In this document: one piece after another, positions 7,918-51,042 of the stretch | How positions within the stretch are numbered: the stretch's first letter is position 1 | Layout: each line of letters begins with the position of its first letter | NCBI GenBank assembly: GCA_030295235.1 | Contig: AP026125.1 | Coordinates: 124,001-188,000 of the forward strand | Origin: Fistulifera solaris | Lineage: Eukaryota | Length of the DNA stretch: 64,000 nt | Reading direction: 5' to 3' | Position numbers and translations under genes: made by a program | The notes under the pieces: model-generated | What the model was told of the DNA's origin: nothing | What the model saw: the letters and a program-made list of their open reading frames with translations, nothing else | The model's database searches: none

Positions 7918-8622
7918 CGACATGTCTATACGCGTGAACGAAAGCGTGCTAAGAGTCATAGAATCATAATCGCAGACCGAGGTCGCACTTGTGAAATAGT
8001 TTGTTATTAAATGGAAGGGCGTCTTTTGTGGAGGAAGGGAGTTTGTTATTGTTATTTACATGAAATCGGGAACTCCTTCAAAGCAAATATAGAATTCCAA
8101 TGTAGCGCAAACCTCTCAGAATTAGTTTGATAATGGTTAGTTTGAATGAGGGGGCCCTAGGTGTGGCATTTTTTCCGCATTTGACCGGAAGGACGTTAAA
8201 ATTCTGCCTCTCAGTACAAGTTCCTACGTAAAGCCTACGGCGAGGCAGAATTTTAACGTCGTTTCCCGTAACAAGAATGTGAGCACGTGCTTCCAATCTC
8301 CTCAGTAGTTTCCAGAATCTTACCGGTACACATTTATCTAATCCGCAAAACCCATTTGAAAATCAAACTAGCGGTACTGAATTGACTATACGCTCAACAA
8401 GTAAACTCAAAAATTCATCGCGGATGCGTTGAAAAGAAAAATTGCCTCACAAATTGATCGATCTTGTAGACGACCATCGGAGAGCCGGCCATAACACAGA
8501 AACGATTCAAAGCGTGCCGTTGAATAAGAACATCTTGTCTTCTGACACCCGAAACTCACGAGTTCTTTTACATTGACGATTGATATCGCAAAACCGTTAT
8601 TAAAGCCAAAGTCAGAACCACC

Positions 8623-11494
8623 ATGGTTCGTTCTATCGAAAACATAATAGTGCTGGCGACAATTGCCTTGACTGCCGCATGGGGATACGACTTGAGTCAA
8701 GATATTGGATTGGAAGGCACGAGTCGATCGTCGGTAACAAGGCCTTCGCACGAGCAACTCATTCAACAACGCCATCTACAGCAAACAGTTGCCGAGAAAG
8801 TGAAAGCGGCCATCGAGCTTGCTGCCGCCGAAGCACATGACGACGACCATACTCCCTCGCCAACGAATTCATTTGAACCCACTTATCAAAGCGGCAAAGG
8901 AGAGACGAGTGCAAAAGCCAAAGGCAAGAAAAGTGGCAAGGGCAAAGGCGATTCAAGTGACAGTGACGACACTCCCTCCGACTACCCCACTTATTTGCCG
9001 ACTAGCACTGCTATTCCAACAGGCACAGCATACCCGACGACGATTGAATTGAAGAGTAAGAAAAGTGGCAAAGGAGAGACGAGTGCGAAGAACAAAGGCA
9101 AGAAGAGTGGGAAGGGTAAAGGCAATTCTTCAAGTGACAGCAATGAGACTCCGTCGGATTACCCCACCTTTGTGCCTACGAGCTCAGCTATCCCGACAGG
9201 AACAGCATACCCGACAACCGAATTGAAAAGTAAGAAAAGCGGCAAAAAGGTGAAAACAGTGCCAAAACAAAAGGCAAGAAGAGTGGCAAGGGCAAAGGCA
9301 ATTCTTCAAGTGACAGCGAGGACACTCCCTCCGACTACCCCACTTATTTGCCGACTAGCTCAGCTATCCCGACAGGAACAGCATACCCGACTACTGAGTT
9401 GAAAAGTAAAAAGAGCGGCAAGGGTGAAAATAGCGCGAAAGCCAAAGGCAAGAAGAGTGGAAAGGGCAAGGGCGAATCGAGTGACAGCGACGACACCCCT
9501 CCGACTTCCCCACTTTTTTGCCCACTCTTCTGCCTACTAGCTCAGCTATGCCAACAGGCACAGCATATCCGACGACTGAGTTGAAAAGTAAGAAAGGCGG
9601 CAAAGGCGAAAGAAGTGGCAAGGGCAAAGGCGAAAAAAGTGGAAAAGGTAAGGGTAAGGGTGATTCAAGTAGCAAGGGCAAAGGTGAAAAAAGCGACAAG
9701 TCAGGCAAGGGTGAGAAAAGCGGAAAAGGTCAAATGAGCAAGTCGAGTAAATCAAGCAAATCAAGCAAGAAGTCTTCGAAAAGAGTGCCTCGCCGGCTCC
9801 TTCACTAAGCCCAACGGCAATTTCCACTGAAACAGAAGGTCCGTCAATATCATTGAGCCCAACGACGTCTCCCAGTGTGTCAGCAAGCCCTTCGGTAATC
9901 TCTCCGTCTACTCTTCCATCAGTCGCGCGAACTTTTGCACCGTCTGAGGTTGTGTCAACTTCCCCCTCATCTCAGATTGTCGAAACTGCCAGTCCCGCTC
10001 CAACAGAGGAAGAAACCATAACGTCAGCTCCCACTGCCGCTCCTAGTATCGGTACACAGAGTCCAAGCGCTGACACCCAAAGTCCGAGCTCAACACCGGG
10101 TCCAAGCACCGACACGCAGAATCCAAGTGCCGCGACCGAAAGTCCGAGCTTAACTATAAGTGAGGCACCCTCAGCTGACACGCAGAGTCCTAGCGTTTCT
10201 GCTGAACCCACCACCACCGTAGTTCCTACAGCTGTCCCCACTACAACAGTCAGCCCAAGTGGTACGCCTTCGGAATTTCCATCCATCATTCCTACCGTAT
10301 TTCCAGAGTGAGATTCCATCAACTGAACCTTCGGCCGATGATGGTAATTTGAGGGAAGCCAGTTTTGAGACAACCCTTGATTTATTCAATGTAGATGAGA
10401 GGTATCAGGATGCGTTTATTGTGGCTGCCGATCGATGGGGATCGATTATTGTTGGAGATCTGCCTGGTCTTTCCGTGACGGACGATACACGAGATGGTGT
10501 GTCATGCGAAAGTTTGCCTGACACGATCGACGATATCTTTATCTGCGCCACGGTGGGCGACATTGATGCTATCAGCGGAGTGCTGGGCTATTCGCAACCG
10601 GAATATGGGGTAAGGCTGGATGGTAAAATCATTCCTGTTATTGGGAGTATGACTCTTGATAGTGCTGATATTGATGATTTGATTGATTCGTCACTTCTCG
10701 AGTCTGTTATTGTAAGTATAGAAGACAAAAGCAGTCACTTCTGATACCATCATGATCTCACCTGGAATTTCGCCCTCCTTTATCAATGAAGACGCACGAA
10801 ATGGGTCGAATTGTAAGTGTCATTTTGGCTGCGTGCCTTATACTTGCTGCAATAATTACGATGACTGACATGCCGTTTGTCTTTTCAGTATGGAATCGGT
10901 TCCTTGTGGACGATGAATGGATTAGTCAAAGAGACCGACTTTTCGTCGTGCTCTTATGCTGCTTCCTCGAAAGCCACGGCTGAATACCAGGAGCTGAGTG
11001 GATGCGACAAGCCCATTCCACTCGAAGGCTGTGGCTTCACGGACAAGACATGTTTCAAAAAGGAAGTCATGACGGGCTACGAAGGGGGTAAAGTTGTGTT
11101 GTCGAGAATGACCGTGGCTTCCTTGGAAGACATGGGATACACCGTCAAGTACGATGCCGCGGATGACTACGGTGTCGAAGATATGGACCCCAGTTGCGTG
11201 TGCGCGACGACATCGACGATTACAATCGGTGATGTCGGCATCACAAAAGTTGAGCGCAACAGACCGACGGTGCGAAAGCTCGGAACGGGCAAATTTGAAT
11301 CGAACCATGCGCATTTAAGTCTCAGTGGTCGCTTGGAGGCAGAAGCTTTCGGTTTGGAACTCTTGAAAGCGGCCAAGCGGCGGAAAAAGTATGTCATTGA
11401 GCGTGAAGGATTTGTCTTCCTCGCGGACCAAGTGGTCTCTGTACTGTATAAGGAAAAAGGACAAATATACGGCGTCGAAGTTCGAAGCGAATAG
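8623..11494 (+). CDS. M8-like protein, probably catalytically inactive, with Lys/Gly/Ser-rich tandem repeats (copy 4; frameshifts in this sequence)
   Basis: Signal peptide and QRHL. Exons 8623-10711 (several frameshifts), 10792-10812 (THEMGRI), 10889-11494 (YGIGSLW...EVMTG). The HW motif is absent. Confidence 0.75.
8889..9600 (+). repeat. About four coding tandem repeats of ~175-180 nt
   Basis: Unit KSGKGETSAKAKGKKSGKGKGDSSDSDDTPSDYPTYLPTSxAIPTGTAYPTTELKSK recurs near 8889, 9061, 9236 and 9411, with a partial unit at 9593. Confidence 0.9.
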
Positions 11495-13339: not shown

Positions 13340-15607
13340 ATGTTACGCCACATTCTCACGAAATTCACAGGGACTACTACTTCACGGTGGATGGCCGTGG
13401 CCGCCGTGACGGCGGGCTATTCCTTACAAAATGAAGACGAACTTGTTTCCTACTTTGAACGAAAGAAATCCTATTGTTGTGGATTAGTGGGAGTTATTGG
13501 GAGTGAGAATTATTCGTCGCGGTGCGTAGCCCAAAAGAATCCTCTTGCTGTATGTCTTTCTTTCTTTGTTACTCACTTTTACCGCAGCGACTTTTTTATT
13601 GAATGGTTTGAGTTTACTGAAGAATCGTGGTTTCGATAGTGCGGGAATTGCTACAATGGATGCTCAAGGAGAACATATGGTGCGTCAGCACGGAAGGGAA
13701 ATAAACGAGGAAGAAAAAGTGCTCTTTTCATTCTCTCACACAATCGCTTCTCTATTCGACACACAGACCATTACGAAATTTGCCAGCGTCGATCATGGCA
13801 TGAATTCGATTGAATTGGTGCATACGCAACATCCTATTACCGTCGACAGCATGGGCATTGCGCATACACGGTGGGCGACCCAAGGGGCCCGGACGAACGA
13901 AAATGCGCATCCGCACACGGATGCGGCGGGACGCATTGCGGTCGTGCACAACGGGAATATCAATAACTATGATGCCCTGCGGAAGGAACTGATTGAAGTT
14001 CATAAAATATCGTTGCAAGGACAAACGGATTCGGAAGTCTTGGCCAAATTGATTGGTCATTATTACAACGGCGACAATTTGAAACACGCGGTCGAAAAAG
14101 CACTCAGTCGTTGTGATGGGACGTGGGGATTGGTTGTCATGAGTCAAACGCAGCCCGATCAACTCATTGTCGCCTGTCACGGGTCTCCCATGGTCATTGG
14201 CGTCGATGATCGTCGCATGTACGTTGCCAGTGAAGCCGAAGCCTTTGCCGGATTGACCAAGACGGTCGTGCATATGGAAGATGGTGAAATTGCGACTCTG
14301 TATGCCGATGGACGGTCGTTGGATTTTTCGCGGGTGGAACAAGTGGCGGAGGACGAAGAAGAACAACGGGCTTTGTCACCAGCACCCTACCAGCATTGGA
14401 CGTTGAAAGAATTGTCGGAAGCCCCGCAAGCCGCGGCACGTGCTCTCGGGTTTGGTGGTCGTTTGGGTGCGGATCGGGTGTATCTGGGGGACTGGATGAT
14501 CAAGTGGAGGCCTTGAAACAGATACGTCATTTGGTATTGGCGGGTGTCGCTACTTCGTTGCATGCCGCGAAATATGGTGAACTGCTGATGAAACGATTGG
14601 GGAGTGTCACTTCCGTGGCGGCCTTGGATGCGGCCGAATGTGAATCCAAAGATTTTCCCATTTCGGAGGATTTGCGAGAAACTGGTTTAGTTGTCATTTC
14701 GCAATCGGGTGAAACCAAAGATGGTGTTTCGTTGGTGCAAATGGCCAAAGGATTGAATATTCCCACAATGTCAGTGGTCAATGCCGTGGGCAGTACGATT
14801 GCGCGGGCCACCAAATTGGGTGTGTACTGCAATGCGGGGCGCGAAAATGCCGTGGCCAGCACCAAAGCTTTCACCAGTCAAGTCACGGTGTTGTCTTTGA
14901 TTGCTCTGTGGTTTCAGCAGAACCGTCCGAATCGTAAGAAACAACATTTGGTGGAAGCCGAGCAATTAAAAGAATCTCTCATGCGACTCCCCATGTCGTT
15001 TGGTGCATCGTTGCAGACGCACGAGCAGTGCAAAACCATTGCTCGTAAACTCAAAGGCAAAGAACATTGTTTCGTGCTGGGCAAAGGATTTGGTGAGCCC
15101 GTGGCACAAGAGGGTGCGTTGAAGTTAAAAGAATTCAGTTACATTCATGCGGAAGGATACAGCGGCGGATCATTGATTCATGGGCCGTTTGCATTGTTGC
15201 AAAGTGATTTGACTGGTAAACAAGGTGCAACGCCCGTGATTATGATCATTTTGGACGACGATCATGCTCAGGAAATGCGCATGGCCGCCGAAGTCGTCAA
15301 AGCACGCGGTGCCCAGATTCATATCATTACCGATAATGTTGCATTGGCGGAAGACTTGGACGACGATCCGATTGTGATCCCGAACAATGGATACTTGACA
15401 GCCTTGGCGGCAACAATTCCTCTGACACTGATTGCGTACGAATTGGCGTTGATCAAGTAAGTGATCGATTAGTGGGAACGTGGTGGGAATCGAGCCTCTT
15501 TTTATTCTGAATTTTCCTAACCTTGTTTCTTTCTATTTCTATGATGCAACAGAGGCCTTAATCCTGATACTCCACGCAACTTAGCGAAAGCTCTTTTGGT
15601 GAGCTAA
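13340..15607 (+). CDS. GFAT: Glutamine:fructose-6-phosphate aminotransferase (GFAT/GlmS), divergent, with N-terminal extension
   Basis: CGLVG, NRGFDSAG, HTRWAT, VHNGNINN, TDSEV, SQSGETKD, VASTKAFTSQ, EGALKLKE, PRNLAK. Introns ~13522-13587, ~13680-13767, ~15457-15552; homopolymer frameshifts at ~13595 and ~14490. Confidence 0.93.
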
Positions 15608-17788: not shown

Positions 17789-20049
17789 AGGTATAGTGAA
17801 ATTCGTAAGTATAAAATAGGTATTGTGATTTGTGACCGATGCGTTGTGGTGGGACAAGTATCCAAAGCGGCATCCTTCACTCCATTTTACTATACCTCCT
17901 GTTGTACTTTGCAATAAAAATGCCAGATACAGGTCTTCGACGGCCTTGGTGGCTTTGAAAACTCCACTCTCGTCTTCAGGATTCGAGCGACTAGAGGATT
18001 ATAATGGCTGGCGTCTTCTTGGTGGAAAAGTGATGAGCGGTACATAAGTATTGGTGTTTTGCTTTTGTTCTTGAATTGTTGTTGTATTTTTCTTTGAATG
18101 AAACCATTCTTTGTGTGTTCCTCAAGATCTCACCAAAAAGCCAATTCGTTCGACTCCTCGCAAGACGAATCGATTTTCATTTGTTCCACACTGCTTTGTA
18201 AATTCCGTTTCGCAGTTCGTTTCAAGCAATCGAAGTCTCAATCATTCCCTCCGTTCTCTCTTTTTCTCCTATCTCATCAATTTTTCTCTCCTTTCTTTTG
18301 TCTGGTCGCTCAATAATAAAGCTTTGAGGACGCGCATCAAGCATTTGATCTTCATTCATAATATTATCTTTGCCTGTCGGCAAAAGGCAGAAAAGTATTC
18401 GCGAAAACTTTTGGTGAGTATTGAGTATAGAGCCAGGTTGTCCGCCCGAATGTTTGTTCTTGAAGCATCTCGCACTGCATAATAGGGATCTTGCTTTAAA
18501 AACTTCCCTATCAAAATACGTAATGAGGGCATATAAAAGTCGCGGTCCGACAAAATAAGCTTTGCGTGAACGAATGATGACTTACTTGGATGTTAACTAA
18601 AGGATCTAATGATGCAATAGAGGTGTAAAGGATGTAGAGATGTAATGGTCTCTTAGATTGTGTGATGAATTGAGATAGGGGCGGAGGCTGACGGATGAAA
18701 GCCTCCGAACTTGTGGTCATTTCACTTCAACTGGTTCGTGCGTCGTAAGGTTATGGTCAACAGAATCTTGGTTATGGTGACCGTGTAAATAAAGGGCTAC
18801 GTAGAAGTCTACGTTTCCTGGTACATTACTTGGTCCCCTCAATCGATTAACGTGGAACGCGATGATCGATTGTTCATGCATGTCATTAATAATACGCAAC
18901 GTTACCAAATAAAATATTTCGCTTGAGCCTGGAAAGTCGTTTCGTGAAATGCGTCGGCCAAATTATCATCCGTAGGGATCCATATAACTTCAATGATTCC
19001 TGCGGCAACGTGCCATCGCGTCATGTGGTAAGCAACTGAATTGTGCTTCTTCGAAAGAGTTGAAGCGAATTCCGATGAGTTCAACACAACTGAACTATTG
19101 TCGCAAAAGATTTTACTCGGTTCGTCATCAAGTGGAACGCCCATCATTCGCAGCTTGTAACGTAGTCCTGTTATCATCTCGATGCATACTTTCATTGCAT
19201 TAAATTCACTTCGCGAATGCGTTTGTTTCAACTGTCGGTTGCTTTTTACTAAACCACATCACAAGTGCTCGATTGACAAAGATCTGAACACCAGTATGGG
19301 ATTGTCTTGTTGCTTTATTTGCGGCGTTTCTGATTTGTTGGCGTTGTGAGCCATCCCTTGTGCTTTGGTACTGCCTGATCTGTGGTGCGGTAGTCGATGA
19401 TTTCTTCGAGTTGGCGTCGTCCGTAACCATGGTCGTCAACCTGTGACAAGATGTTCTCAGCAATGACGTTGGCGGTGACAACTTCGCTTGTGCCATCGAT
19501 ATAGTTAATGACATATTGGCGGGAGGTCGAGGACGGGGTTGTTATTTGCCGTTCAGCGTGGCTTGCCATCGTCGTCTGTTGCCCGTTCCGTGACCTTTGC
19601 TCCTATGACTTGACCGTCGCTTGTGCGTTTCATGCTGAGTCTCATATTGACATACGGGTCGCCTTCTTCCTGTTGCTCTCGCAAGTCGTCCACTGCATGC
19701 GGTAGGTCGGGATCGTCAATGACGGCTGAAAGTCGTCAATGAAGGCCTGTGTTTCGTCCAGAGAAGTCGCCTAAGATGCAATCTTCGTGAACGTGCGGTG
19801 GAATTTTGACGGGTTCCATTACTGCCATCTTTTCTTTTATCCTCTCGCTGTATGCCTCCATGCTTCCACTCATCTGTTTGCATTTCCAATCGAGTGACTC
19901 GTTGTACTGTGCTGCATGAGATTGGTATGCCCGAAGCTGGAAGGATCCAGTAAGACATGAGGTTGCCAATTGTGTGAGACACGCCAAGCCACCGTCCAAT
20001 GCTTATTTCACCAAGTCCTGCATTCTCACGGTACGCCACCCAGTCATAG

Positions 20050-20562
20050 TGTCAAATTATATTTAGTTCTGGTCATGAGTATTCGGGACTCCTAGTGTGT
20101 GTGGAGTGTACTTACTGTCTTTGTGATAGTGAGTTTGTGTATCCGGTACTCATGGTATCTTTTGGGGTTCGCTTCCGCACACGTCATCGGAAGTTTGGCG
20201 CATGTGCAAGTTCTTCTCTTGACACGTCGCAGAGGTGTGCGTAGTGTGTGGTATAGTGTTCTACGTGACGTATAAGTTGGTACCAGAGCTAAGGAAGTTA
20301 TGTTTAAGTCTACGACGGCATAGTACTGGTCAAGTGTCGACGTCGACAAGATTTGGTTCAAGATCACAAGATCTTGACTTCATTTCCGCCCTCTTTTGCA
20401 GTCTCACATGAATAACAATAGTGAATTTGGTTTGCCTCGACTTTCCTTGTTCGCTCTATTCTATTGCATCCTGTCTCTTGAAGACAAGCTTTCTTTCAGT
20501 CTCGCTTACTGTTTTGAAGATTCGTTTCGGGTGAGCTATCTGTGCGCTCCCGGAATTTGTCA
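20050..20562 (+). repeat. 5' LTR of inner element (513 bp)
   Basis: TGTCAAATT...AATTTGTCA; direct repeat of 26480-26993. Confidence 0.97.
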
Positions 20563-20576
20563 GATTAACAGTCGCA
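20563..20576 (+). other. Primer-binding site complementary to a tRNA-Asn(GTT) anticodon arm
   Basis: GATTAACAGTCGCA abuts the LTR; its reverse complement is TGCGA-CT-GTT-AA-TC. Confidence 0.7.
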
Positions 20577-20604
20577 GTTTTCAAGTTTCGCTTTCCGTCC
20601 CGCC

Positions 20605-23600
20605 ATGGTTCTCTCTCGAGCTCAATCGCGGGCGCTTTCAACCACGTGATGGACAATGTCCTTGGCCGTGGTGATGATTCTACTCTTAAGCAAGCGTTGG
20701 TGTCCGCAGGGTTTCTGGACATCTACTTGCTCCTCGAGTTACGTCCTTTGGACATCGGAAGTCTTGAGTTTCGCGAACGGCCGGCGAAAACTTCCCAGTC
20801 GCTCGTGGTGATAAGACTTTGTTGTATGCCTTCCTCGAGTTTGTGTCTCATCGTGGTCGTTCTGGTGACCCGATCGATGACTGGTTGGCGGTCACTGAAG
20901 ACGGGTTCAATGAGTTCCGCTTAAGCCCGAACGCGTTTTCGATCGCGAACAACCTCGAGGCCCCCGGGGTTCCTGTTCCCCCTCCTGTTGCATCCCGTGC
21001 GCGAGGGAATGTCTCCCGCAGCTCTTTTCAAGCGTGGTATTAAACGTGATCCTTCTCTCTTTCCTACTCTCAAGGACGAGAGCTTCAACGGCGCCTGGCA
21101 TCGTTCTTTTGTCAATCAGGCCCGAGCTCAAGATGTGGAAGAGGTGCTCAACGAGGATTATGCCCCTACTACTGAAGACGAAAGAGAGTTGTTCGACGAA
21201 AAACAGAAGTTTCTCTACGCCGTCTTGGAGAGTAAGGTGCTTACGGACCAAGGAAAAGCCCTTATTCGCGACTACGAAGACACTTACGACGCCCAAAAGG
21301 TCTATGCAGCGTTGAAGCGCCATCACCTACAGTCTACCAAGGCCCAGATGGATTCGGCAACGATTCTATCCTACATTACTTCCGTTCGTTATGGAGAAGG
21401 TCATCGTGGTGGTACTGCATCTGGATTCGTGCATGATTGGATTGAGCAAGTTCGCCGTTATGAGCGCATGTCCGGTGACCCCTTTTCCGATAAGCACAAG
21501 CGAATCCTACTTGAGAATGCTGTTAGTACTGTCGCTGAGTTCCGTCAGGTCAAAACTAGTGCTGATTTGGAGTTGACCAAGAATGGAACGGAGTTAACTT
21601 TCGAGCAGTACTGCGCTCTCTTGATTTCCCGCTGTGTCTCAGTTGAAGAACAAGCCAAACGCAAGTCTCAGCGTCGGTACTGTTAACTTCCATGAGACTT
21701 ATGCTTCCGATTTCTGTGATGAGGCCGGTACTGGGGAAGTTGACCTTTCTGGTTATCTTGTGGACTCCGATGTTCCTGTTTCTGAGTGGCAAGTTAATGC
21801 TACTGACCGGCGTTCTGTTGGATTCCGTGGTTCTCCTTCAACTGGGTCTGCTCCTAGAACGCGAATGCCGCGCGAACGTTGGTTCCAGTTGAGCGATGAC
21901 GCGCGTCAAATTTGGGATTCTTTGGCGGATCGCGATAAAGCCATCATTCTTGGTTTGCTTTCCGCTCCCGGACGTGATGTCAATGGCGGAAATCGTGACA
22001 CGCATTCCATGACTCAGACCGGTCGTCCGTCCATCCTCCGTCGCACGGTGCAGTTTCACGACCTTGACCCTATTGCATCTCACGACTCTTCCCCTCCCGG
22101 AACCTACTGAAGAGTTTCATGATGCTGCTCAAGATCCTCCAAGTGCCGTGCTTGATGGTGAGTCTACCGTGCTTGTGAATGCCGCTCGCTCTAGTTCTAC
22201 GCTGGCCCCGCACGATATTCGTCGCCTTCTGTCTCGTTCTTCGCAGAACAATTCGAATCGTCAAGTTAACACTTTGACGACGTATCGCGTGTCCCTTCAA
22301 CACGTTTCTCCTGTGGATTCGCTACTCGATCGCTAGGTGCCAACGGTGGTGTTGCCGGCTGTGACGTCCGAGTCATTCACAAGGATTTTCCCCATCGGCG
22401 TGTCAACATTCAAGGCATCGACAACCATCAGATGACCGATCTCGAACTTCCGGTACTGTTGGCGGCGAGGCGCGCAACACGGACCGGTCATAGCTGTTTT
22501 CAACCAGTACGCGTTGTATGGAAAAGGCCCTACCATTCACGCTTCCGGACAGTTGGAGCACTTCAAGAACGTTGTCGATGACAAGTCTATCCACGTGGGC
22601 GGGCGGCAGTGCATCGCAACTCTCGACGGTTACGTGATCCCTCTTCAAGTTCAACAGGGACTCGCTTCGCCTTCCTATTCGTCCGTTTACCGACGACGAA
22701 TGGCGTTCTCTCCCGCGTCATTATGACGAGCCTTCTCGATTGGGATCCTTCTGTTCTCGATCATGCTAACGATCAAGCTGATTGGTTCGATCGCATCAGC
22801 AACACGCTCGATCTTGAAGATCCTCGTCCCCTCTTCGACGAATTCGGCGACTACCATCGCGGGGATAGTATGGACATCGAAGATCGCCGTTTTTGCCCAC
22901 GTCGCCCTTCCTCCGATCTTTCCGGCCCTTGACGAAATCATCGAGTTGCGCCCACGACGCTTACGGTATTGAGCCCGCCGCTTTCCAGGCTATTGCCCGC
23001 CATTTCGAGGTCTACAACAACGAATTTGTCGCACAAGGCCATGTTGATGACGACGACGACGTGACTGGACCACCCGTGAAAGCCCTTCCCGTCACGCCAC
23101 GTACTATTCAGCGCCAAGACCCGGATCTAGGTCGACTTCGTCCTTACTTTGGATGGATTTCCAACGATTTGATCAAGAAGACGCTTGAAAATACCACCCA
23201 GTATGCTCGCCTTCCACTCCCTGGCAGCACCCTTCTCAAGCGCGCCTTCAAGTCTTCAAATCCGGCTCTCAATGTTCATCGCCGTTCCGAAGCCGTCGCG
23301 TGTGATATCGTCTCACAGCCAATACACCGGCTATTGACAATGGGTCCCAGTCTGCCGTTATCTTTGTTGGCTATGATACCATGGTTACCGATGTTTATGG
23401 TATCAAGACGGATCGCCAGTTCATTCGGACCTTGGAAGACAATATTCGTGAACGGGGGAGCCCCAACTCGTCTCCTTAGCGATCGCGCCCAAGTTTTGAT
23501 CAGCAACGCGGTTCAAGACGTTCTTACTTTCTGTATCGGCGTGTGGCAAAGTGAGCCCCACCAACAGCAACAAAACCCTGCCGAACGCCGTTTCCAGACG

Positions 23601-26329
23601 ATCAAGAATACTGCCAACCGCATCTTAGACCGTACCGGCAGCCACCTTCTCACGTGGCTTCTTTGTCTTCAATACGTGTGCTTCCTCCTCAACCACACGT
23701 ACAATCAAACTTTGAAGACTGTTCCGTTGTTGGCGTTGACGGGTTCGACTCCTGATGTTAGCGTTCTTTGCGCTTCTACTTCTGGCAACGTGTTTTGTAT
23801 TTGAAGCACGACTACGGTTTCCCTTCTGATTCTCCTGAAGGCCTTGGCACTATCGTCGGTATTTCCGAACATGTTGGGCCCGCTCTTTGCTGGAAGATTC
23901 TCACTGCTGACACCAAGCAAGTCATTTGCCGATCTTCCGTTCGTCCGTACACTGAGGACGACCCTAATTTGCGCCGCTCAGGCTGCCGGGAGATGTCTTC
24001 TACTACTTCTGCTCCTGTCATCCTGTCCCGCAAGGATTCAGTCACAGAGAAAATTTCGTTTTCTCTCAGCCCTCCGACAGCCTTAGCGACCGTGCCTCCT
24101 CCTCCACCGTTGATGTCGAAGATTTGATTGGTCGAACGTTTCTGACGGATGTGGCTTCTGATGGTCAGAAACACCGAGCAAAGATTGCACGCTCGTCGAC
24201 GATTTCGATTCTTCCGTTGAACGAGTACCAGAATGAATCAAGTTTGTGTGCAAGGTTGGAGAATCCGAAGCCGAAGAAGTTTTCAGCTATGCCCAGATCA
24301 TGGCATACCTAGCTCGAGACGCGGATGCCCCTGTTTGGAAGTTCAAGCACATCATTTCGCATCAAGGTCCCCTTAAAGATGGAGATCTCGACTACAAAGG
24401 TTCTTCCTACAATGTATTGATCGAATGGGAGAACGGGGAGATCACAGCTGAGCCTCTAAATGTTATTGCTTCCGATGACCCTGTGACCTGTGCTATTTAT
24501 GCCAAGGAAAATAACCTCTTGGATGTTCCCGGTTGGAAAAGATTCAAGTCCATCGCAAAAAGACACAAGAAGTTCGTCCGGTTGGTGAACCATGCTAAGC
24601 TTCGCTCCTACAACACGGCTCCGCGATACAAGTATGGTTTCGAAATTCCCGTGACTATGCACATGCGATGCGTCTAGACGAGCAAAACAAGAACACCAAG
24701 TGGAAGGATGCCGTTGCCTTAGAGTTGCTTCAAATTCAAGAGTACGAGACCTTCAAGGATTTAGGTCACAAGTCGGTTGGGAGGCCTCCTCAAGGTTACA
24801 AGAAAATTAGCGTCCACTTAGTTTTTGACGTCAAGCACGACGGACGTCACAAGGCTCGACTGGTGGCAGACGGACACTTAACCGATATCCCTACTGAGTC
24901 TGTCTACTCCGGCGTTGTCAGTTTACGGAGTTTCCGTCTGGTTACTTTTCTTGCCGAGCTTAATTCTCTCAAGTTCTGGGCTACCGACATCGGCAATGCC
25001 TATCTCGAGGCGTTTACCTCCGAACGCGTCTACATTGAGGCTGGACCTGAGTTCGGTGAATTGGCTGGTCATATTCTTCTTATCAGCAAGGCCCTTTACG
25101 GACTACGTACCAGCAGCGCAATGGGCCGATCGATTGGCTGACGTTATGCGAATTGGGTTTTCAACAATGCAAGGCCGATCCCTACATTTGGCTACGACGC
25201 AACGAAGATGTTTACGAGTATGTTGCGGTCTATGTTGATGATTTGGCCTTAGCGATGAAGGATCCTCAAGCGTTTGTCGACTTGCTAACGAAAGAGTACA
25301 AGTTCAAGTTGAAGGGAACCGGCCCAGTCAGTTTCCATCTCGGAATGGACTTCACTCGTGACAAGGATGGTACTCTTTGCATGTCTCCCAAGAAATACAC
25401 CGAAAAGATCATCGCCGAATTACGAACGAATGTACGGGGAGTCGCCCGAAACAGAATGTCACTTCACCGTTAGAAAAGGGCGATCATCCGGAACTGGACA
25501 CTTCAGAGTTTCTGGATGAGAAAGGTACTCGAGATTACCAGTCTTTGATTGGTTCGTTGCAATGGTTGATCAGTATCGGGCGCTTCGACATCATGACTGC
25601 TGTTATGACGATGTCCGGCGTTTCGTTCTGCTCCCAGCGCAGGGTCATTTGGATCGCGTTAAGCGGATCTTTGGATACGTTTCGAAGATGCGGAACGCCG
25701 CCATTCGCTTTCGTACAGGGGTTCCTGATTTGTCCGATCTACCTAATTTTGAGTACGATTGGTCCAAGTCGGTTTACGGTGACGTGAAAGAGGTTGTTCC
25801 CCATGATGCTCCTGGACCTCTCGGCAAGGCAGTTGTTTCTCACGCATTATGTCGATGCGAACTTGATGCATTAGTGGCTACGGGGAGATCTGTGACTGGT
25901 ATTCTACATTTCCTTAACCAGACGGCCGATCGATTGGTATTCCAAGAAGCAAGCTACTGTCGAGACGGCTACGTATGGATCCGAGTTAGGTTCGCCGCCA
26001 AGGACTTGTGTTGAACAAATCATCGACATTCAAACACACTTCGCTATTTGGGTGTTCCTATCCGAGACAAGGCTTATATGTCTGGCGATAATCAATCGGT
26101 TGTCAACAGCTGACGCAAGTTCATGCCAAGCTTCACAAGCGTCACACGATGCTTTCCTTTCATCGAGTTCGTGAGGCAATTGGCGTCTGGTATGATTGCT
26201 TTCCTTCACATCCCTGGCGACATGAACCCGGCCGATATTCTCAGTAAGCATTGGGGATACTCGCAGATCTGGCCGCGTTTGAAGGCTGTGTTGTTTTGGA
26301 TGGGTGACACCTCGGAGATCGAAGACTAG
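20605..26329 (+). CDS. Gag-Pol polyprotein of inner element (multiple frameshifts)
   Basis: gag FKRGIKRDPSLFP; protease LLDR.GANGG; integrase SDRAQ...QNPAERRFQTIK; chromo-like YNVLIEWENGEITAEP; RT VFDVKHDGRHKARLVADG and YVDDL; RNase H TGRSVTG...NPADILSKHW. Confidence 0.9.
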
Positions 26330-26465
26330 TTCAGGATTCCAAGGTGTCGAGTGATATTTGTGGTTATGTGTTGAGTGGTTTTACATGTTTATATGTCTGA
26401 GCGAGGCAAACAGGGATGGAGTTTGGTTTGAATTGGTTTGGATTTGGATTGGAGACCGTGTCTGC

Positions 26466-26479
26466 GAGAAGACGGGGAG
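26466..26479 (+). other. Polypurine tract of inner element
   Basis: GAGAAGACGGGGAG immediately 5' of the 3' LTR. Confidence 0.85.
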
Positions 26480-26993
26480 TGTCAAATTATATTTAGTTCT
26501 GGTCATGAGTATTCGGGACTCCTAGTGTGTGTGGAGTGTACTTACTGTCTTTGTGATAGTGAGTTTGTGTATCCGGTACTCATGGTATCTTTTGGGGTTC
26601 GCTTCCGCACACGTCATCGGAAGTTTGGCGCATGTGCAAGTTCTTCTCTTGACACGTCGCAGAGGTGTGCGTAGTGTGTGGTATAGTGTTCTACGTGACG
26701 TATAAGTTGGTACCAGAGCTAAGGAAGTTATGTTTAAGTCTACGACGGCATAGTACTGGTCAAGTGTCGACGTCGACAAGATTTGGTTCAAGATCACAAG
26801 ATCTTGACTTCATTTCCGCCCTCTTTTGCAGTCTCACATGAATAACAATAGTGAATTTGGTTTGCCTCGACTTTCCTTGTTCGGCTCTATTCTATTGCAT
26901 CCTGTCTCTTGAAGACAAGCTTTCTTTCAGTCTCGCTTACTGTTTTGAAGATTCGTTTCGGGTGAGCTATCTGTGCGCTCCCGGAATTTGTCA
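26480..26993 (+). repeat. 3' LTR of inner element (514 bp)
   Basis: Matches the 5' LTR by eye except one extra G near 26884. Confidence 0.97.
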
Positions 26994-29900
26994 CATAGAA
27001 ACCGAAGTCGGCGTATTCTGTGATGTCGGGAGTGATTCCGGTGACACACTCAAGTGGCGGCCATTTGAGTATCTTGAGGAGTTCGTGGTGCGGTTTCCTA
27101 TTTCCGACACCCACTTCAATCCGAGCGACCACAGCCTGTTTGGAACATTCCTGCGATGCATTGCACGATACCATTTCATTTTGAGCTGTCGTATGCCGCC
27201 TTCAGCAGGGTTCTGGTTTGGGCGATCCTTTTCAGACGTGTGCGTGATGATGTCGTATTTTCGTATTCTTCGTTGAAATTCGGTCTTTGGTCCTGTTTGA
27301 TTTGCAGCACCGTCATAAGTCAAATGGTCGGGTGCGCCGTGTTCATTAGCAAAGTTGCGCAGTGTCTCACCCACCGCATCACCAGTTAGTGATTCAATGG
27401 GGTAGACTGCGGAGAATCCATTCTTGTGCGTGTAGGCTTGTGCGTATTTCTTTCCGTCAATGGACTTTATATCGCCATACATGGTGTCAGTGGCAAAGCG
27501 TCCTTGGAGTCGCCTGAGATTGTATTGACGGTCCGCACGGTAGCGACGACCGGCTGGCATTATTAGCGGATCGAGTTCCTCTTTGCCTGGTTGCTCGTAG
27601 AAGTTGCCCGTGCCTGTTCCAGTCCGATTGACCATTGGTCGGATAAGTTCTCTGCTGTGATAGCTAGATGTCGTTCGGCTTGAAATAAAGGTGCGCCCTG
27701 GCTGGTACGTCTTCAAAACCGAGAATGGGCTCTGGTGCTGGGCCCAGTCGATTGCTTAAAGTGCCAGTCCCCTCAATCCCTGTATCTGTCCCCTCAGGCC
27801 TTGTTGCAAGTTCGTGATAAGCGGAAGAGATCCTGACACGAGAAGTTGCTAGTTCCCGAAGTTGAACAAGGGCTGGATCGACGTTGTGAAGGAGTGAATC
27901 ACTTGTGAAAGGGTGAATGAAGGGTTCAGGCGTGGCCGCTGGTTCAATGGAGGTCAAATCAACAGCACCCAACGTGACTTGCTTTGGGTTCCATTCGTTG
28001 AAGTTGGTCATATGGAGCTGACGACAGTGTTGAAGTTCATATTCAGTTGGAGCACGCGTGATAAACTGGCCTTTTGTGCCGAATGTGTGAAGCGGAATCA
28101 CAACGTCCTCTACTCGTATTGACATGCGTGTTTCAGAAGTGTCGTACGGATTGTCATTTACTTCCACACCGTTGTGGCGCAGCTGGTTTGGATTCCAGAG
28201 CGTGTCGCGGGAAGTGGCGTGCCGTAGTAAAGTGTTTCATTGAAGACAAGGATGAAAGTTTGGTCTGTTTCGGGATTCGTCCATGCCGTGGCAGCCGAGA
28301 CAATTAGTACGTCTTTGATCGGCTGATAGGAGCTATCGTACGGGTAAACATCGGCAAAGCGTGACGTGTACTGCATAACGACAAAGTTGGTCCCGGCGCA
28401 GCAAGTGTCCGCGTTTGAATCGCATTCATTTGCAGCAGCAACTCCCGGCTGTGGTGGAACGCCCGACTTGCATTGATTTCATATCTAACTGGTGCGACGT
28501 GTACACAGAATGGAAATGTGCTATGTTTCGATTGCCTCGCCTGTTTGCTTCTTCGTTCACGTCCGGCCAAAAGGTGTGCCTCCTGGCGTTTGCGTGTTGG
28601 CCTGGCTTAGCTGCATGGTGATGGCTGATGCAATTGTATTAGCATCAGTACCATCTGGAATTGAGAGAGTGAGCTGGTTGATACTGCGACCAAACTGGCC
28701 ATTGTTGTTACCGTTTGCTCGCTGGTTTCGATACTCCGCTCGCTTGTTGTAGATGTTTTGCCTGTCGTTGCGGGTGCATGAGCGACATCTCCTCATCAGT
28801 GAAACTGTAAGAGGGGTGTCGTCGATGACCTTCCGTTCGTGAGTGTCAGTTTGTAGTTGTCGGGATGAGCGCGTGGTTTGTTGTAACGGTGTGCACCGCG
28901 CCCACCGCGTCCTCCGCGCCCTCGTCCACCGTGCGTGAAGGGCTGGCCTCGGCCACCGTTTCCACGGCCGCCTCTGCCGCCACGTCCCCCATTTCCTGCG
29001 TTCTTATGCTGCTGGCGTGTGGAATTTGTATTTCCCACGTTGCGTCCTTTGCCTGTTACGTCCTTGTTTTCTGTGACGATGATGTTCGCATGTCAGCAAG
29101 TACGGCCTCAAAGGTCATATCGCCATAGTTGGGCTTGCCGAGGTCTCGCTGAACGGAAATCGCTACGTCGCGCAACTGGCTGCATGGTTTGATCATTTTC
29201 AACAGCTTCTTGATCTTTTCGATGTCGTCATACACAACAGTTCCTTCCCGAGCATTCTTGTTCTTGTCGTGGAATGCTTTTACGAGCCTGCTTTCGAAGG
29301 TGGTCCAAGGGAGGCGCCCATCCTTTTCACCATGGTACATCATGGTGTCAAGAGTGGTTTCGGCATTGACGATTTCGATTTTGAATGCACCTACAGCCGA
29401 ACAAAGCTTTCAGTGCGAACCAATCGGTACGGCCGCATAGCTTGGACTTAAACTGTTGCGTGGCACCTTCAGCACGAGTATTTCCTGCAATAAGGGCAAG
29501 GAGATACGTGTGCACCTCCATGGAGTCGGACTCAAATGCAGGACCGGCGAGTGCTGCAGCGGCGATGTAGCGGTTTTGGGCAGTGATGCGTTCATCGGGA
29601 TCGAACTCGGGGTCTTCCCTCGTCGCGAATAACGTAGACAAGTGGATGCCCAAGGCGTCCAGGGAGCTGGCGAAGGTAGTTTGTAAACTGGGCTGCAAAG
29701 TCTGGCCAAGACTGGTTGTTACGGAACTTATCCGGCTTTGCAATTGTCGCTAAAGTTTTGGAGCGCGTGACGAATGCTTCATGGTCTGCCTGTTCGTACG
29801 TGAGAAATAGTGCCTGATTCGTTGGAAAGACGTAAGTCTCCGGGGTTTGAAGGCAGCGGAAGCACTGCTTCACCCACTCGATGAATGCCTGGAGTTTGGT

Positions 29901-31522: not shown

Positions 31523-32032
31523 GTCATGTTTTGTGTTCAGTGTTCAACGAATAAACTTGCGTGACATGACGGACCAATCGTGCTTTTACCAGTACTAGTC
31601 TATGAGTACTTTACTATCTGTACTCTTTATTCTACTCAGGATGTCTGAGTTGTCGAATGGATATACCTTAATATACCAGTACCTTTGCTAAACTTCTGAA
31701 GATTTTCTGGGAAGTTTTGTGCCACGCACGCAAGTTCTTCTCTTGCCCACACGTCTGACTTGACTCACAAGGAGACGAGCGATGAGAGGAGTACTTGTAA
31801 TTACAAGTTTCCCTCGTCGTTAGGGCTTTACTTACGATGAGAAAGATATAAACGTAAAGATGTAAAAAGGATCGTAAGGTCGTAAAAACGTCTTAGAGAA
31901 ATTGTGCGTTAAAGGCTAGCAGCAAGGTGTTGAAGAGGAAACCCCGAAGGGACAAAAACCTCTCGGACGTGGCGAGGAAGCCATGTCGCACTGTGACGAA
32001 CATGACCGTATAGACCGCATATTTTACTTGAT

Positions 32033-48882: not shown

Positions 48883-51042
48883 ATGGTAGAGGTCACAAAA
48901 GAAAACAACGTCAAGTCGATGCGGCGCTTCTGGGGCGGATTACGTCAGGGCAAGTCTCAGGAGTCGGTAGGAACAGACACAACAACGAGCGGTACGAGTA
49001 CGCCGGCGAATGAGGATGATAACATTCCGTTGATTGAACGCATCAAAATGGATATGGCCGCTTCTTCTTCGTCTCTGGGGAAACGTTCTACCACGAAAGG
49101 AGCCAGTGAAACCGTAGAAGAGTCGGTCAGTGAGCAGTCATCGACATCCTGGATGAATGAGGAGAGTCATTCGGTGCTGTCTCTGGTCGGCCCGCGATCC
49201 ATCACCCGCGCGCCGTCGACACGCAAAGTGGAGCCTTCCGAGGATGCGGAGGCTGCGCCCCGAGTGAACACTTCGTTGAAAAAGAAACTCATCAAAGTCA
49301 AGCGGACACCCGGAAGTGCCGCCAGTGTCGATGGAAGTGTCGACATTTCGGTTCTTTCGGCGATGAAAAGTGCCGGAAAGACCAAATTCACCGCCAAGGA
49401 GTTGAAAGAAATGGGGGTCGATATTCCCGCACAGCGGGGCCGTGCCGTGGCCAAGGTGAAGGAAAGCGACAAGAGCGTGCGTCGATCCCGCAGCAAGTCG
49501 CGGGCGCGTGATGGTGATGATAGTAGTAAACACTCCAGCTCGCGAGGACGAGACAAGTTGCGTTCGAAAAGCAGTGGACGAGCTCGTTCGAGAGTTCGTG
49601 CGCGTTCGAGCACCAGTGTTTGTGGCAATTACGAAGAGGAGGCTACGCAAGTAGTTCCTATTGAAATTCGTCCCAAGTCGCCTTCGAAAGAAAAGCTTTC
49701 AGTCAAGGAACGTGCCAAGAATTTTGAGCAAAAAGTGAAGCGGCCAAAGTCAAGGATGGTAGCGCGTCGCGTTTACCAAGCGTCCCGGGGCTACGTTGCA
49801 CGACAGTGCATCACGAGGAAAGGACTCGACCGAAAAAACGAGGTCGCGATCAGTGCATCGCAGAAGCATTGAGGTAGAGGACCGCGAAAGCGAGTCGCTG
49901 GAGAAGTCCTCGCGAGGAAGAGATGCGACCGAAAAAACAACACGAAGATCGAAGTCAGTGCATCGCAGAAGTACGGAAGAAGAGGAACAAGACGCCGGCG
50001 AGAAAACAGCCCGAAGATCCCGATCCGTACATCGTAGATCTATTGATCTAGATGATCGTGATGGCGAGTCGCGAGGAAAAGATTCGGCTGAGAAATCTCC
50101 GCGAAGATCCAAGTCAGTGCATCGTAGAATCATCGACCTAGATGATCGTGATAGTGAATCGCCGGCGAAGTCTTCTCGGGGAAGAGATGTGACCGAAAAA
50201 ACAACACGAAGATCGAGGTCGGTGCATCGCAGAAATGTTGAAGATGACCCTGAAACGGAAGCTGGCGAGAAAACAGTTCGAAGGTCCCGATCTGTGCATC
50301 GTAGATCCATTGACGTAGAAGATGTAGATGGTGAGTCGCCTGGAAAGTCATCGCGAGGAAGAGACGCAGCCGTGAAATCTCCCCGAAGTAGGTCCAAGTC
50401 GGTGCGTCGTAGAAGTATCGATGCCAACGAAGGGGTCGAATCGCCCGTGAAGTCATCGAGGGGAAGAGATGCTACCGAGAAATCTCCTCGAAGGTCCAAG
50501 TCCGTACGTCGTAGAAGTATTGACCACGACGATCGCATTACCGACTCGCCTGGAAAATCTTCTCGGAGTAAAAACGTAACGGAAAAGTCTCCCCGAAGAT
50601 CCAAGTCTGTACATCGTCGAAGTATCGGCCAAGGCGAGTCTTCTGCTGAAGGAACAAGGCGCAAAAGTCTTGCCAGCGAAAAGTCACCTCGCCAGAGATC
50701 CATCGGCACGGATGAAGAAGGCCGGTCACCCCGGCGATCAGTAACATCGTCCGGAAAATCTCCTCACAGAAGGTCGAAAAGCATTGGCAGAAAAGTGGAG
50801 CCGAAACCAAAGTCGCAAGATTACGAAGACTATTCGTCTTCCGAGGAAAGCATGCCTCCTGTTCCTACTCAGATATTGATTCGGCCCGATCAGGAAGACG
50901 AAACGGATGAAGAAAAGAGGTGCCCCAGCAGGTAAAGAAAAACAGCGATGAAATCTACAGCAAAATCAAACATGCAGGTATTACGCAGGAGCAATTCTTG
51001 GCGTTGACACAAGCTGGTTTGACGATTACGAATGAGGAATGA
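48883..51042 (+). CDS. Ser/Arg-rich repeat protein with the same C-terminal motif
   Basis: ORFs 48883-49872 and 49796-50935 plus tail IYSKIKHAGITQEQFLALTQAGLTITNEE* joined by frameshifts. Confidence 0.7.
49805..50710 (+). repeat. Coding tandem repeat SRGRDATEKSPRRSKSVHRRSI (about nine units)
   Basis: RSxSVxRRxI recurs throughout ORF 49796-50935; near-identical blocks 264 nt apart (49917 and 50181). Confidence 0.9.

Follow-up and report, generated by a model that had tools for sequence, protein, structure and literature searches.

The window analyzed here is a 64-kb stretch of the Fistulifera solaris genome, and it carries on the plus strand an LTR retrotransposon of 6,944 bp (20050-26993). 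The element is delimited by a 5′ LTR of 513 bp (20050-20562) and a 3′ LTR of 514 bp (26480-26993), both with TG..CA ends and distinguished from each other by a single 1-nt gap, and the same 5-mer, CATAG, is found on its left (20045-20049) and right (26994-26998) sides as a target site duplication (TSD). Directly after the 5′ LTR comes the primer-binding site discussed below (20563-20576), followed by a leader (20577-20616) and by a gag-like region (20605-21686) spread over several frames, which was recognized by its placement after the primer site and has a probable start at the ATG at 20605; the profile search gave no Pfam match for this region. Further downstream we found an integrase-like region (23079-23804), with 61% identity over 231 amino acids to residues 834-1061 of the relative P0012, and a reverse transcriptase (RT) in two frames (24599-25473) that matches RVT_2 (Pfam PF07727) with E-values of 2e-12 and 3.4e-9. 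The rve match of P0012 itself, at 942-982, is weak (E 0.0045, under the curated cut-off). A polypurine tract lies at 26466-26479, flush with the 3′ LTR. We classified the element as Copia because of its RVT_2 RT with an integrase-like stretch upstream, and the features expected of Ty1/copia are present: an LTR pair with TG..CA ends, a TSD, RVT_2, an integrase-like stretch 5′ of the RT (weak rve) and a polypurine tract. A named relative of the RT, 90% identical, also comes from F. solaris. Given the near identity of the two LTRs, this copy is young. Its coding region is split into many short frames; the contigs of run X1 span the interior of the insertion and both flanks with few differing letters and have 13 and 54 gap letters in two long pieces, so some of the frame breaks may be assembly errors.

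The element is nested in an older Copia element, on the minus strand at 18552-20044 and 26999-29600, which shows 50-80% protein identity to a family with a tRNA-Ile-type primer site (L081, L084 and L107). A purine tract and an LTR of this older element lie near 18550-18840, its RT is seemingly missing, and we did not find its 5′ LTR or primer site in the window. A solo LTR of the L081-type family, with CAAG..CTTG ends and a 4-bp TAAT duplication, is located at 31804-32030 on the minus strand. Elsewhere in the window, open frames at 8584-10744 and 49763-50935 contain tandem repeats, with units of ~176 bp (rich in Lys/Gly/Ser and in Pro/Thr) in the former and of 90-177 bp in the latter. The window also has a class II glutamine amidotransferase domain (13530-14516, plus strand) and a periplasmic-binding-protein domain (PF01497; 59968-61515, minus strand).

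A sequence-only reading of this DNA had proposed that the 5′ LTR is not followed by a TGG-type primer-binding site, that another motif adjoins it, and that the complement of this motif reads as nt 27-40 of a tRNA. The LTR indeed ends in ...TTGTCA and is followed by GATTAACAGTCGCA at 20563-20576 with a spacer of 0 nt, its limits being fixed by the second copy at 26480-26993, the TG..CA ends and the CATAG on both sides. No TGG-type site lies directly after the LTR; a TGG-like 12-mer is internal to both LTRs. The complement of the motif, TGCGACTGTTAATC, occurs in two tRNA-Asn(GTT) genes of the host detected with ARAGORN (2 of the 28 loci), at nt 27-40; the sequence-only reading had beforehand been made to depend on its presence there. 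The end of the LTR does not extend the match to G41. Across the 51.7-Mb genome we found 28 exact matches to GATTAACAGTCGCA, compared to 0 for the reversed control. Twenty-six of them directly follow TCA or TTA, and the remaining two are the tRNA-Asn genes. When up to two mismatches were permitted, there were 26 perfect sites, 3 with one mismatch and 6 with two, compared to a control total of 12.

Conservation among the family copies, also proposed as a check, turned out to be complete: the 14 bases are unchanged in 17 of 17 distinct junction contexts, with diverged flanks, and conservation falls off immediately outside them. The base 3′ of the 14-mer is A in 7 of these contexts, G in 7 and T in 3, with C in none, so the pairing is not continued to G26. 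The nine LTRs that we compared fall into five groups that are largely unalignable, with at most 41 aligned bases in common. Regarding the other host tRNAs, complementarity to the site reaches at most 5 nt in eight nuclear ones (initiator tRNA-Met included) and at most 7 nt in 43 mostly organellar ones, compared to 14 nt in nuclear tRNA-Asn; the nuclear set comprises nine types gathered by patterns and is incomplete, most of the 63 candidates from an Rfam tRNA search of the genome being organellar. With no more than 5 nt of complement to the host initiator tRNA-Met, the site thus falls outside the copia/Ty5 primer type in its strict sense.

One could argue that the resemblance to tRNA-Asn is coincidental or relictual, and that the element relies on Tf1-type self-priming or on a hairpin. 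Other modes may exist in this genome, given that a distant Copia clade (L115-L118 and L139, RT ~31% identical) carries a 16-nt palindrome across the LTR border and no tRNA site, an arrangement reminiscent of the hairpin site conserved in GalEa elements of fungi (PMC5445492, in excerpt). In the present element, however, the site has a complement of no more than 6 nt within the LTR and no more than 8 nt within the whole element, and no palindrome longer than 4 nt is found at the LTR junction, so that self-priming is largely refuted. Chance is at odds with the gap between the 14 nt for nuclear tRNA-Asn and the 5 or 7 nt at most for the other tRNAs gathered, and a relic would not remain invariant across unalignable LTRs. 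Taken together, we regard this explanation as very improbable. We give even less credit to the idea that priming in fact takes place at the TGG-like 12-mer of 20278-20289, by the 3′ end of initiator tRNA-Met. This 12-mer, which in both LTRs lies directly 3′ of a TATAAG box, is identical at 11 of 12 positions to the metazoan GalEa site quoted in an excerpt of PMC5445492, but it is internal to both TSD-bounded LTRs, away from the LTR border, and agrees with the end of the host initiator tRNA-Met at 9 of 12 positions, with the first mismatch at position 6. Judged by its DNA, the element is very probably a half-tRNA-primed Copia: a complement to the anticodon arm of a host cytosolic tRNA, up to nt 40, is adjacent to its LTR, and neither a tRNA 3′-end site nor a self-priming complement was found with the incomplete tRNA set. 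The site, its location, the exact match to nt 27-40 and the sharp limits are direct observations, and they make it highly probable that this young diatom Ty1/copia retrotransposon has its minus-strand DNA primed by a 5′ fragment of tRNA-Asn(GUU) ending at C40.

A metagenome scan for the site returned at least 117 loci. Among the matches listed, 43 are tRNA-like and 12 follow TCA or TTA, compared to about 2 expected among 74 under even base use. C is the next base in none of these 12 listed junctions, and a protein match to Copia relatives was obtained in only one of the 12, with 400 bases available for each. Within the F. solaris genome, a group of elements of ~1.0-2.8 kb (L015-L018, L024-L025 and L140) carries the Asn site with no RT match nearby, and these are probable non-autonomous partners; in L016 the site is a variant with one base changed.

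To place the Asn elements among their relatives, we fetched 40 regions around RT matches (with no exact Asn match nearby, or otherwise unexplained) and 20 regions around Asn sites. An LTR pair was found in 34 of the 40 regions around RT matches; the primer site is of the Ile type in 20 of these and of the Lys type in 10, the other 4 carry a palindrome, and none has a TGG site. Several of the 20 Ile-type sites contain 1-3 extra or changed bases. The Ile core, GTTTATCAGACCCA, lies opposite nt 27-40 in the five tRNA-Ile(AAT) genes of the host, and the 18 matches to the Ile pattern comprise 5 tRNA genes, 11 non-tRNA sites with C opposite A34 and 2 non-tRNA sites with G there. According to an excerpt of PMC5066629, reverse transcriptase reads I34 as G. 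The C opposite A34 in the 11 exact Ile sites is as predicted by an inosine at position 34, putative in this host; since it is also expected from selection for pairing, by itself it points to use of the mature tRNA and not to copy-back. The two sites with G opposite position 34 (L180 and L181, at 1501-1514) could pair with a tRNA-Met(CAT) arm, which was not found among the tRNAs gathered. In L082, L088, L091, L098 and L103, the Ile-type site has 1-3 extra bases opposite the anticodon loop.

The Lys site lies opposite nt 27-40 of two host tRNA-Lys(TTT) genes. Among the 14 non-tRNA Lys sites (control, 2), three are exact and 11 are mismatched at position 32. The two full copies with an exact site, out of 11, are non-sisters, which fits repeated correction from the primer and also fits recombination or a modified C32 that is misread. 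Part of the Lys elements (L083, L085-L087, L092, L095, L100 and kin) form a family with LTRs of 88-89 bp, CG..CG ends and 4-bp TSDs, whose copies differ at only 22-60 sites in 5,028.

A quick RT tree was built from 46 rows, leaving out L139 (low cover) and the regions without an LTR pair; in it, the 12 Asn-site rows are all on one side of a branch with a support of 94, while the Lys rows are placed among the Ile clades. TSDs are 5 bp in the Asn elements with clean ends and 4 bp in most Ile and Lys elements. Hence, the type of primer site goes along with both the RT clade and the length of the TSD. G26 is present in all three tRNAs, and so is U36-A37, with A37 modified to t6A37 in other eukaryotes; a rule built on U36-A37/t6A37 would be broken by the Tyr primer of rust fungi. 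The use of a single register by three tRNAs is the strongest evidence, at the level of sequence, for an internal tRNA end at nt 40 as the primer. With register 27-40 recurring for Ile and Lys in the related clades, the half-tRNA priming by Asn put forward in the sequence-only reading is well supported and very likely correct.

We also looked at possible pairing beyond the 14 bases. In the present copy, the leader at 20577-20616 would pair with nt 1-26 of tRNA-Asn at -16.3 kcal/mol, with p 0.032 against shuffles and p 0.137 against other windows of its own locus. For the 40 nt after the site, pairing with tRNA nt 1-26 beats shuffles in the seven Asn groups (Fisher p 0.008), the ten Ile groups (p 1e-4) and the single Lys group (p 0.002), the groups being related, non-independent and pooled by a crude cluster rule; individually, p is <0.05 in only 2 of the 7 Asn groups. 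The 40 nt before the site gave no gain over shuffles (p 0.18 for Asn, 0.69 for Ile). The same was seen in eight metagenome junctions, with p 0.003 after the site vs 0.48 before it. A control with cognate against other tRNAs does not discriminate, as tRNA-Asn and tRNA-Lys have nt 8-26 in common. Among the Ile elements with extra bases in the site, L088 and L098 show the strongest D-arm pairing, perhaps as a compensation for these bases. As the groups are non-independent and the signal in the present copy is weak, we take a loose pairing of leader and D arm as a lead. Two other candidates were discarded: the U5 motif GAGCTATCTGTGCGCTC as a partner of the D arm, whose upstream pairing gave p 0.21 in this family and 0.18 pooled against shuffles, and a match in sense orientation between 12 nt of the leader (20598-20609) and nt 59-70 of tRNA-Asn, which we ascribe to chance; it spans the likely start codon, and the corresponding match is at most 7 nt in 13 of 16 leaders.

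These results suggest the following mechanism. The tRNA-Asn would be cut between nt 40 and 41 by some nuclease, before or after annealing. Its nt 40-27 would then pair with the site, and RT would in all likelihood extend from C40 into the last base of the LTR. Such direct extension would give flush DNA ends, as at the polypurine tract. Alternatively, an intact tRNA-Asn could anneal by its anticodon arm, with synthesis starting without a prior cut (e.g. from an internal 2′-OH), or the RNase H of the element could cut it after annealing, and no free half-tRNA would be involved. All of the results on site, register and clades fit this alternative too, as DNA sequence does not discriminate between the two, and the long tRNA fragments of 30-35 nt reported for P. 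tricornutum come, in the portion of PMC4247016 available, from libraries aimed at short RNAs and without Asn being named. On the other hand, a 3′-OH at nt 40 is the start described for Hemivirus elements (PMC1181622), and primers of the half-molecule class, cut in the anticodon stem, have been described (PMC6317226), both in excerpts of these reports. We therefore hold the uncut or late-cut tRNA to be unlikely, and favor a tRNA-Asn fragment ending at C40 as the primer.

Subsequently, plus-strand synthesis would copy the primer back from nt 40 to nt 27 and, somewhat more probably than otherwise, halt at G26, probably N2,N2-dimethyl-G26. The precedent is retroviral, with plus-strand synthesis copying the primer up to m1A58, the plus-strand stop of HIV-1 (PMC13191261, in excerpt). 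m2,2G26 is a known and common RT stop. We infer G26 as the stop because all three tRNAs have G26, dimethyl-G26 stops RT and the match ends at nt 27. Copy-back with such a stop would renew exactly 14 bases per cycle, and G26 would play the role that m1A58 has for 3′-end primers. Strict renewal in each cycle should nonetheless erase mismatches and insertions, and 11 of the 14 Lys sites are mismatched at position 32 while several Ile families keep insertions within the site. As for the leader, the chances seem even that it pairs loosely with the D arm past G26, as a part of the site that would not be renewed and would be family-specific.

Joining the three tRNAs, we tentatively propose, as a reading that we consider possible but rather less than probable, a large radiation of diatom Copia elements without an ordinary primer site, whose clades would be primed by a 5′ piece of tRNA-Asn, -Ile or -Lys that in every case has nt 40 as its last nucleotide. 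Their site would have two parts, a 14-base core renewed by copy-back to dimethyl-G26 and a loose, family-specific D-arm tail, and, as the primers have U36-A37 and G26 in common, the positions of both cut and stop may be determined by modified bases. If true, half-tRNA priming would obey a general rule and, in diatoms, be linked to stress-driven tRNA cleavage.

To our knowledge, half-tRNA priming is known from few elements only, and we know of no settled account of how the primer is cut and the plus strand stopped in it. To contextualize our results, we compared the element with described systems, the reports being cited here from parts of their text. For copia and Ty5, priming by a half tRNA is established, the primer being initiator tRNA-Met (titles cited in PMC10886601). 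The elements of the Hemivirus type (Drosophila copia and 1731, yeast Ty5 and Volvox Osser; PMC1181622) resemble ours in belonging to the Copia superfamily, in having an LTR-adjacent site and in starting at nt 40. However, while copia and Ty5 use initiator tRNA-Met, the primer deduced from the DNA of the diatom element is tRNA-Asn; to judge from its site, the element very probably works in a Hemivirus-like way, yet with a primer other than initiator tRNA-Met.

Among diatom elements, the CoDi elements (Maumus 2009, PMC2806351) are similar by description only: Copia elements of 5-8 kb with near-identical LTRs and mostly TG..CA ends. A term search of the main text of PMC2806351 gave no mention of tRNA, primer binding or priming. 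The novelty implied by the sequence-only reading stands in part, since no report of such a site in a diatom was found in the literature searched, which covered neither subscription journals nor Repbase entries. The replacement of initiator tRNA-Met by Asn is less new, as tRNA-Asn-GTT has already been named for the Helenus TRIMs of rust fungi (Kojima 2024, PMC10886601), and for Ile, Arg and Lys, too, half-tRNA sites have been published (PMC6317226, PMC4139406, PMC5445492). Helenus and its partner Copia elements share with the diatom element anticodon-loop sites for tRNAs other than Met, primer switches from one lineage to another and a 5-bp TSD; they differ in their fungal host, and priming is inferred there as it is here. 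This precedent is not clean, in that one passage names tRNA-Asn-GTT and two others in the same section name Asp, so the primers in print for rust fungi are Tyr, Ile, and Asn or Asp (PMC10886601). Bianca of plants (Neumann 2019, PMC6317226), with a half tRNA-Ile bearing inosine 34, is like the Ile clade of the diatom genome, but its hosts are plants, and the only half-molecule primers reported in the available part of PMC6317226 are Met and Ile. Internal non-Met sites are likewise carried by Copia elements of Candida albicans, for tRNA-Arg(UCU) (PMC4139406), and by FunCo1 of fungi, for tRNA-Lys (PMC5445492); their tRNAs and hosts differ from those of our element. Sites of this kind would be missed by tools that seek TGG, which our results explain. 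With three tRNAs, one fixed register and a sharp limit at G26, a stop at methylated G26 and a shared rule for the cut become testable. In comparison with these systems, our finding extends the known half-tRNA mechanism to another host group, and adds to it a register common to three tRNAs, a probable mark of inosine and a limit at G26.
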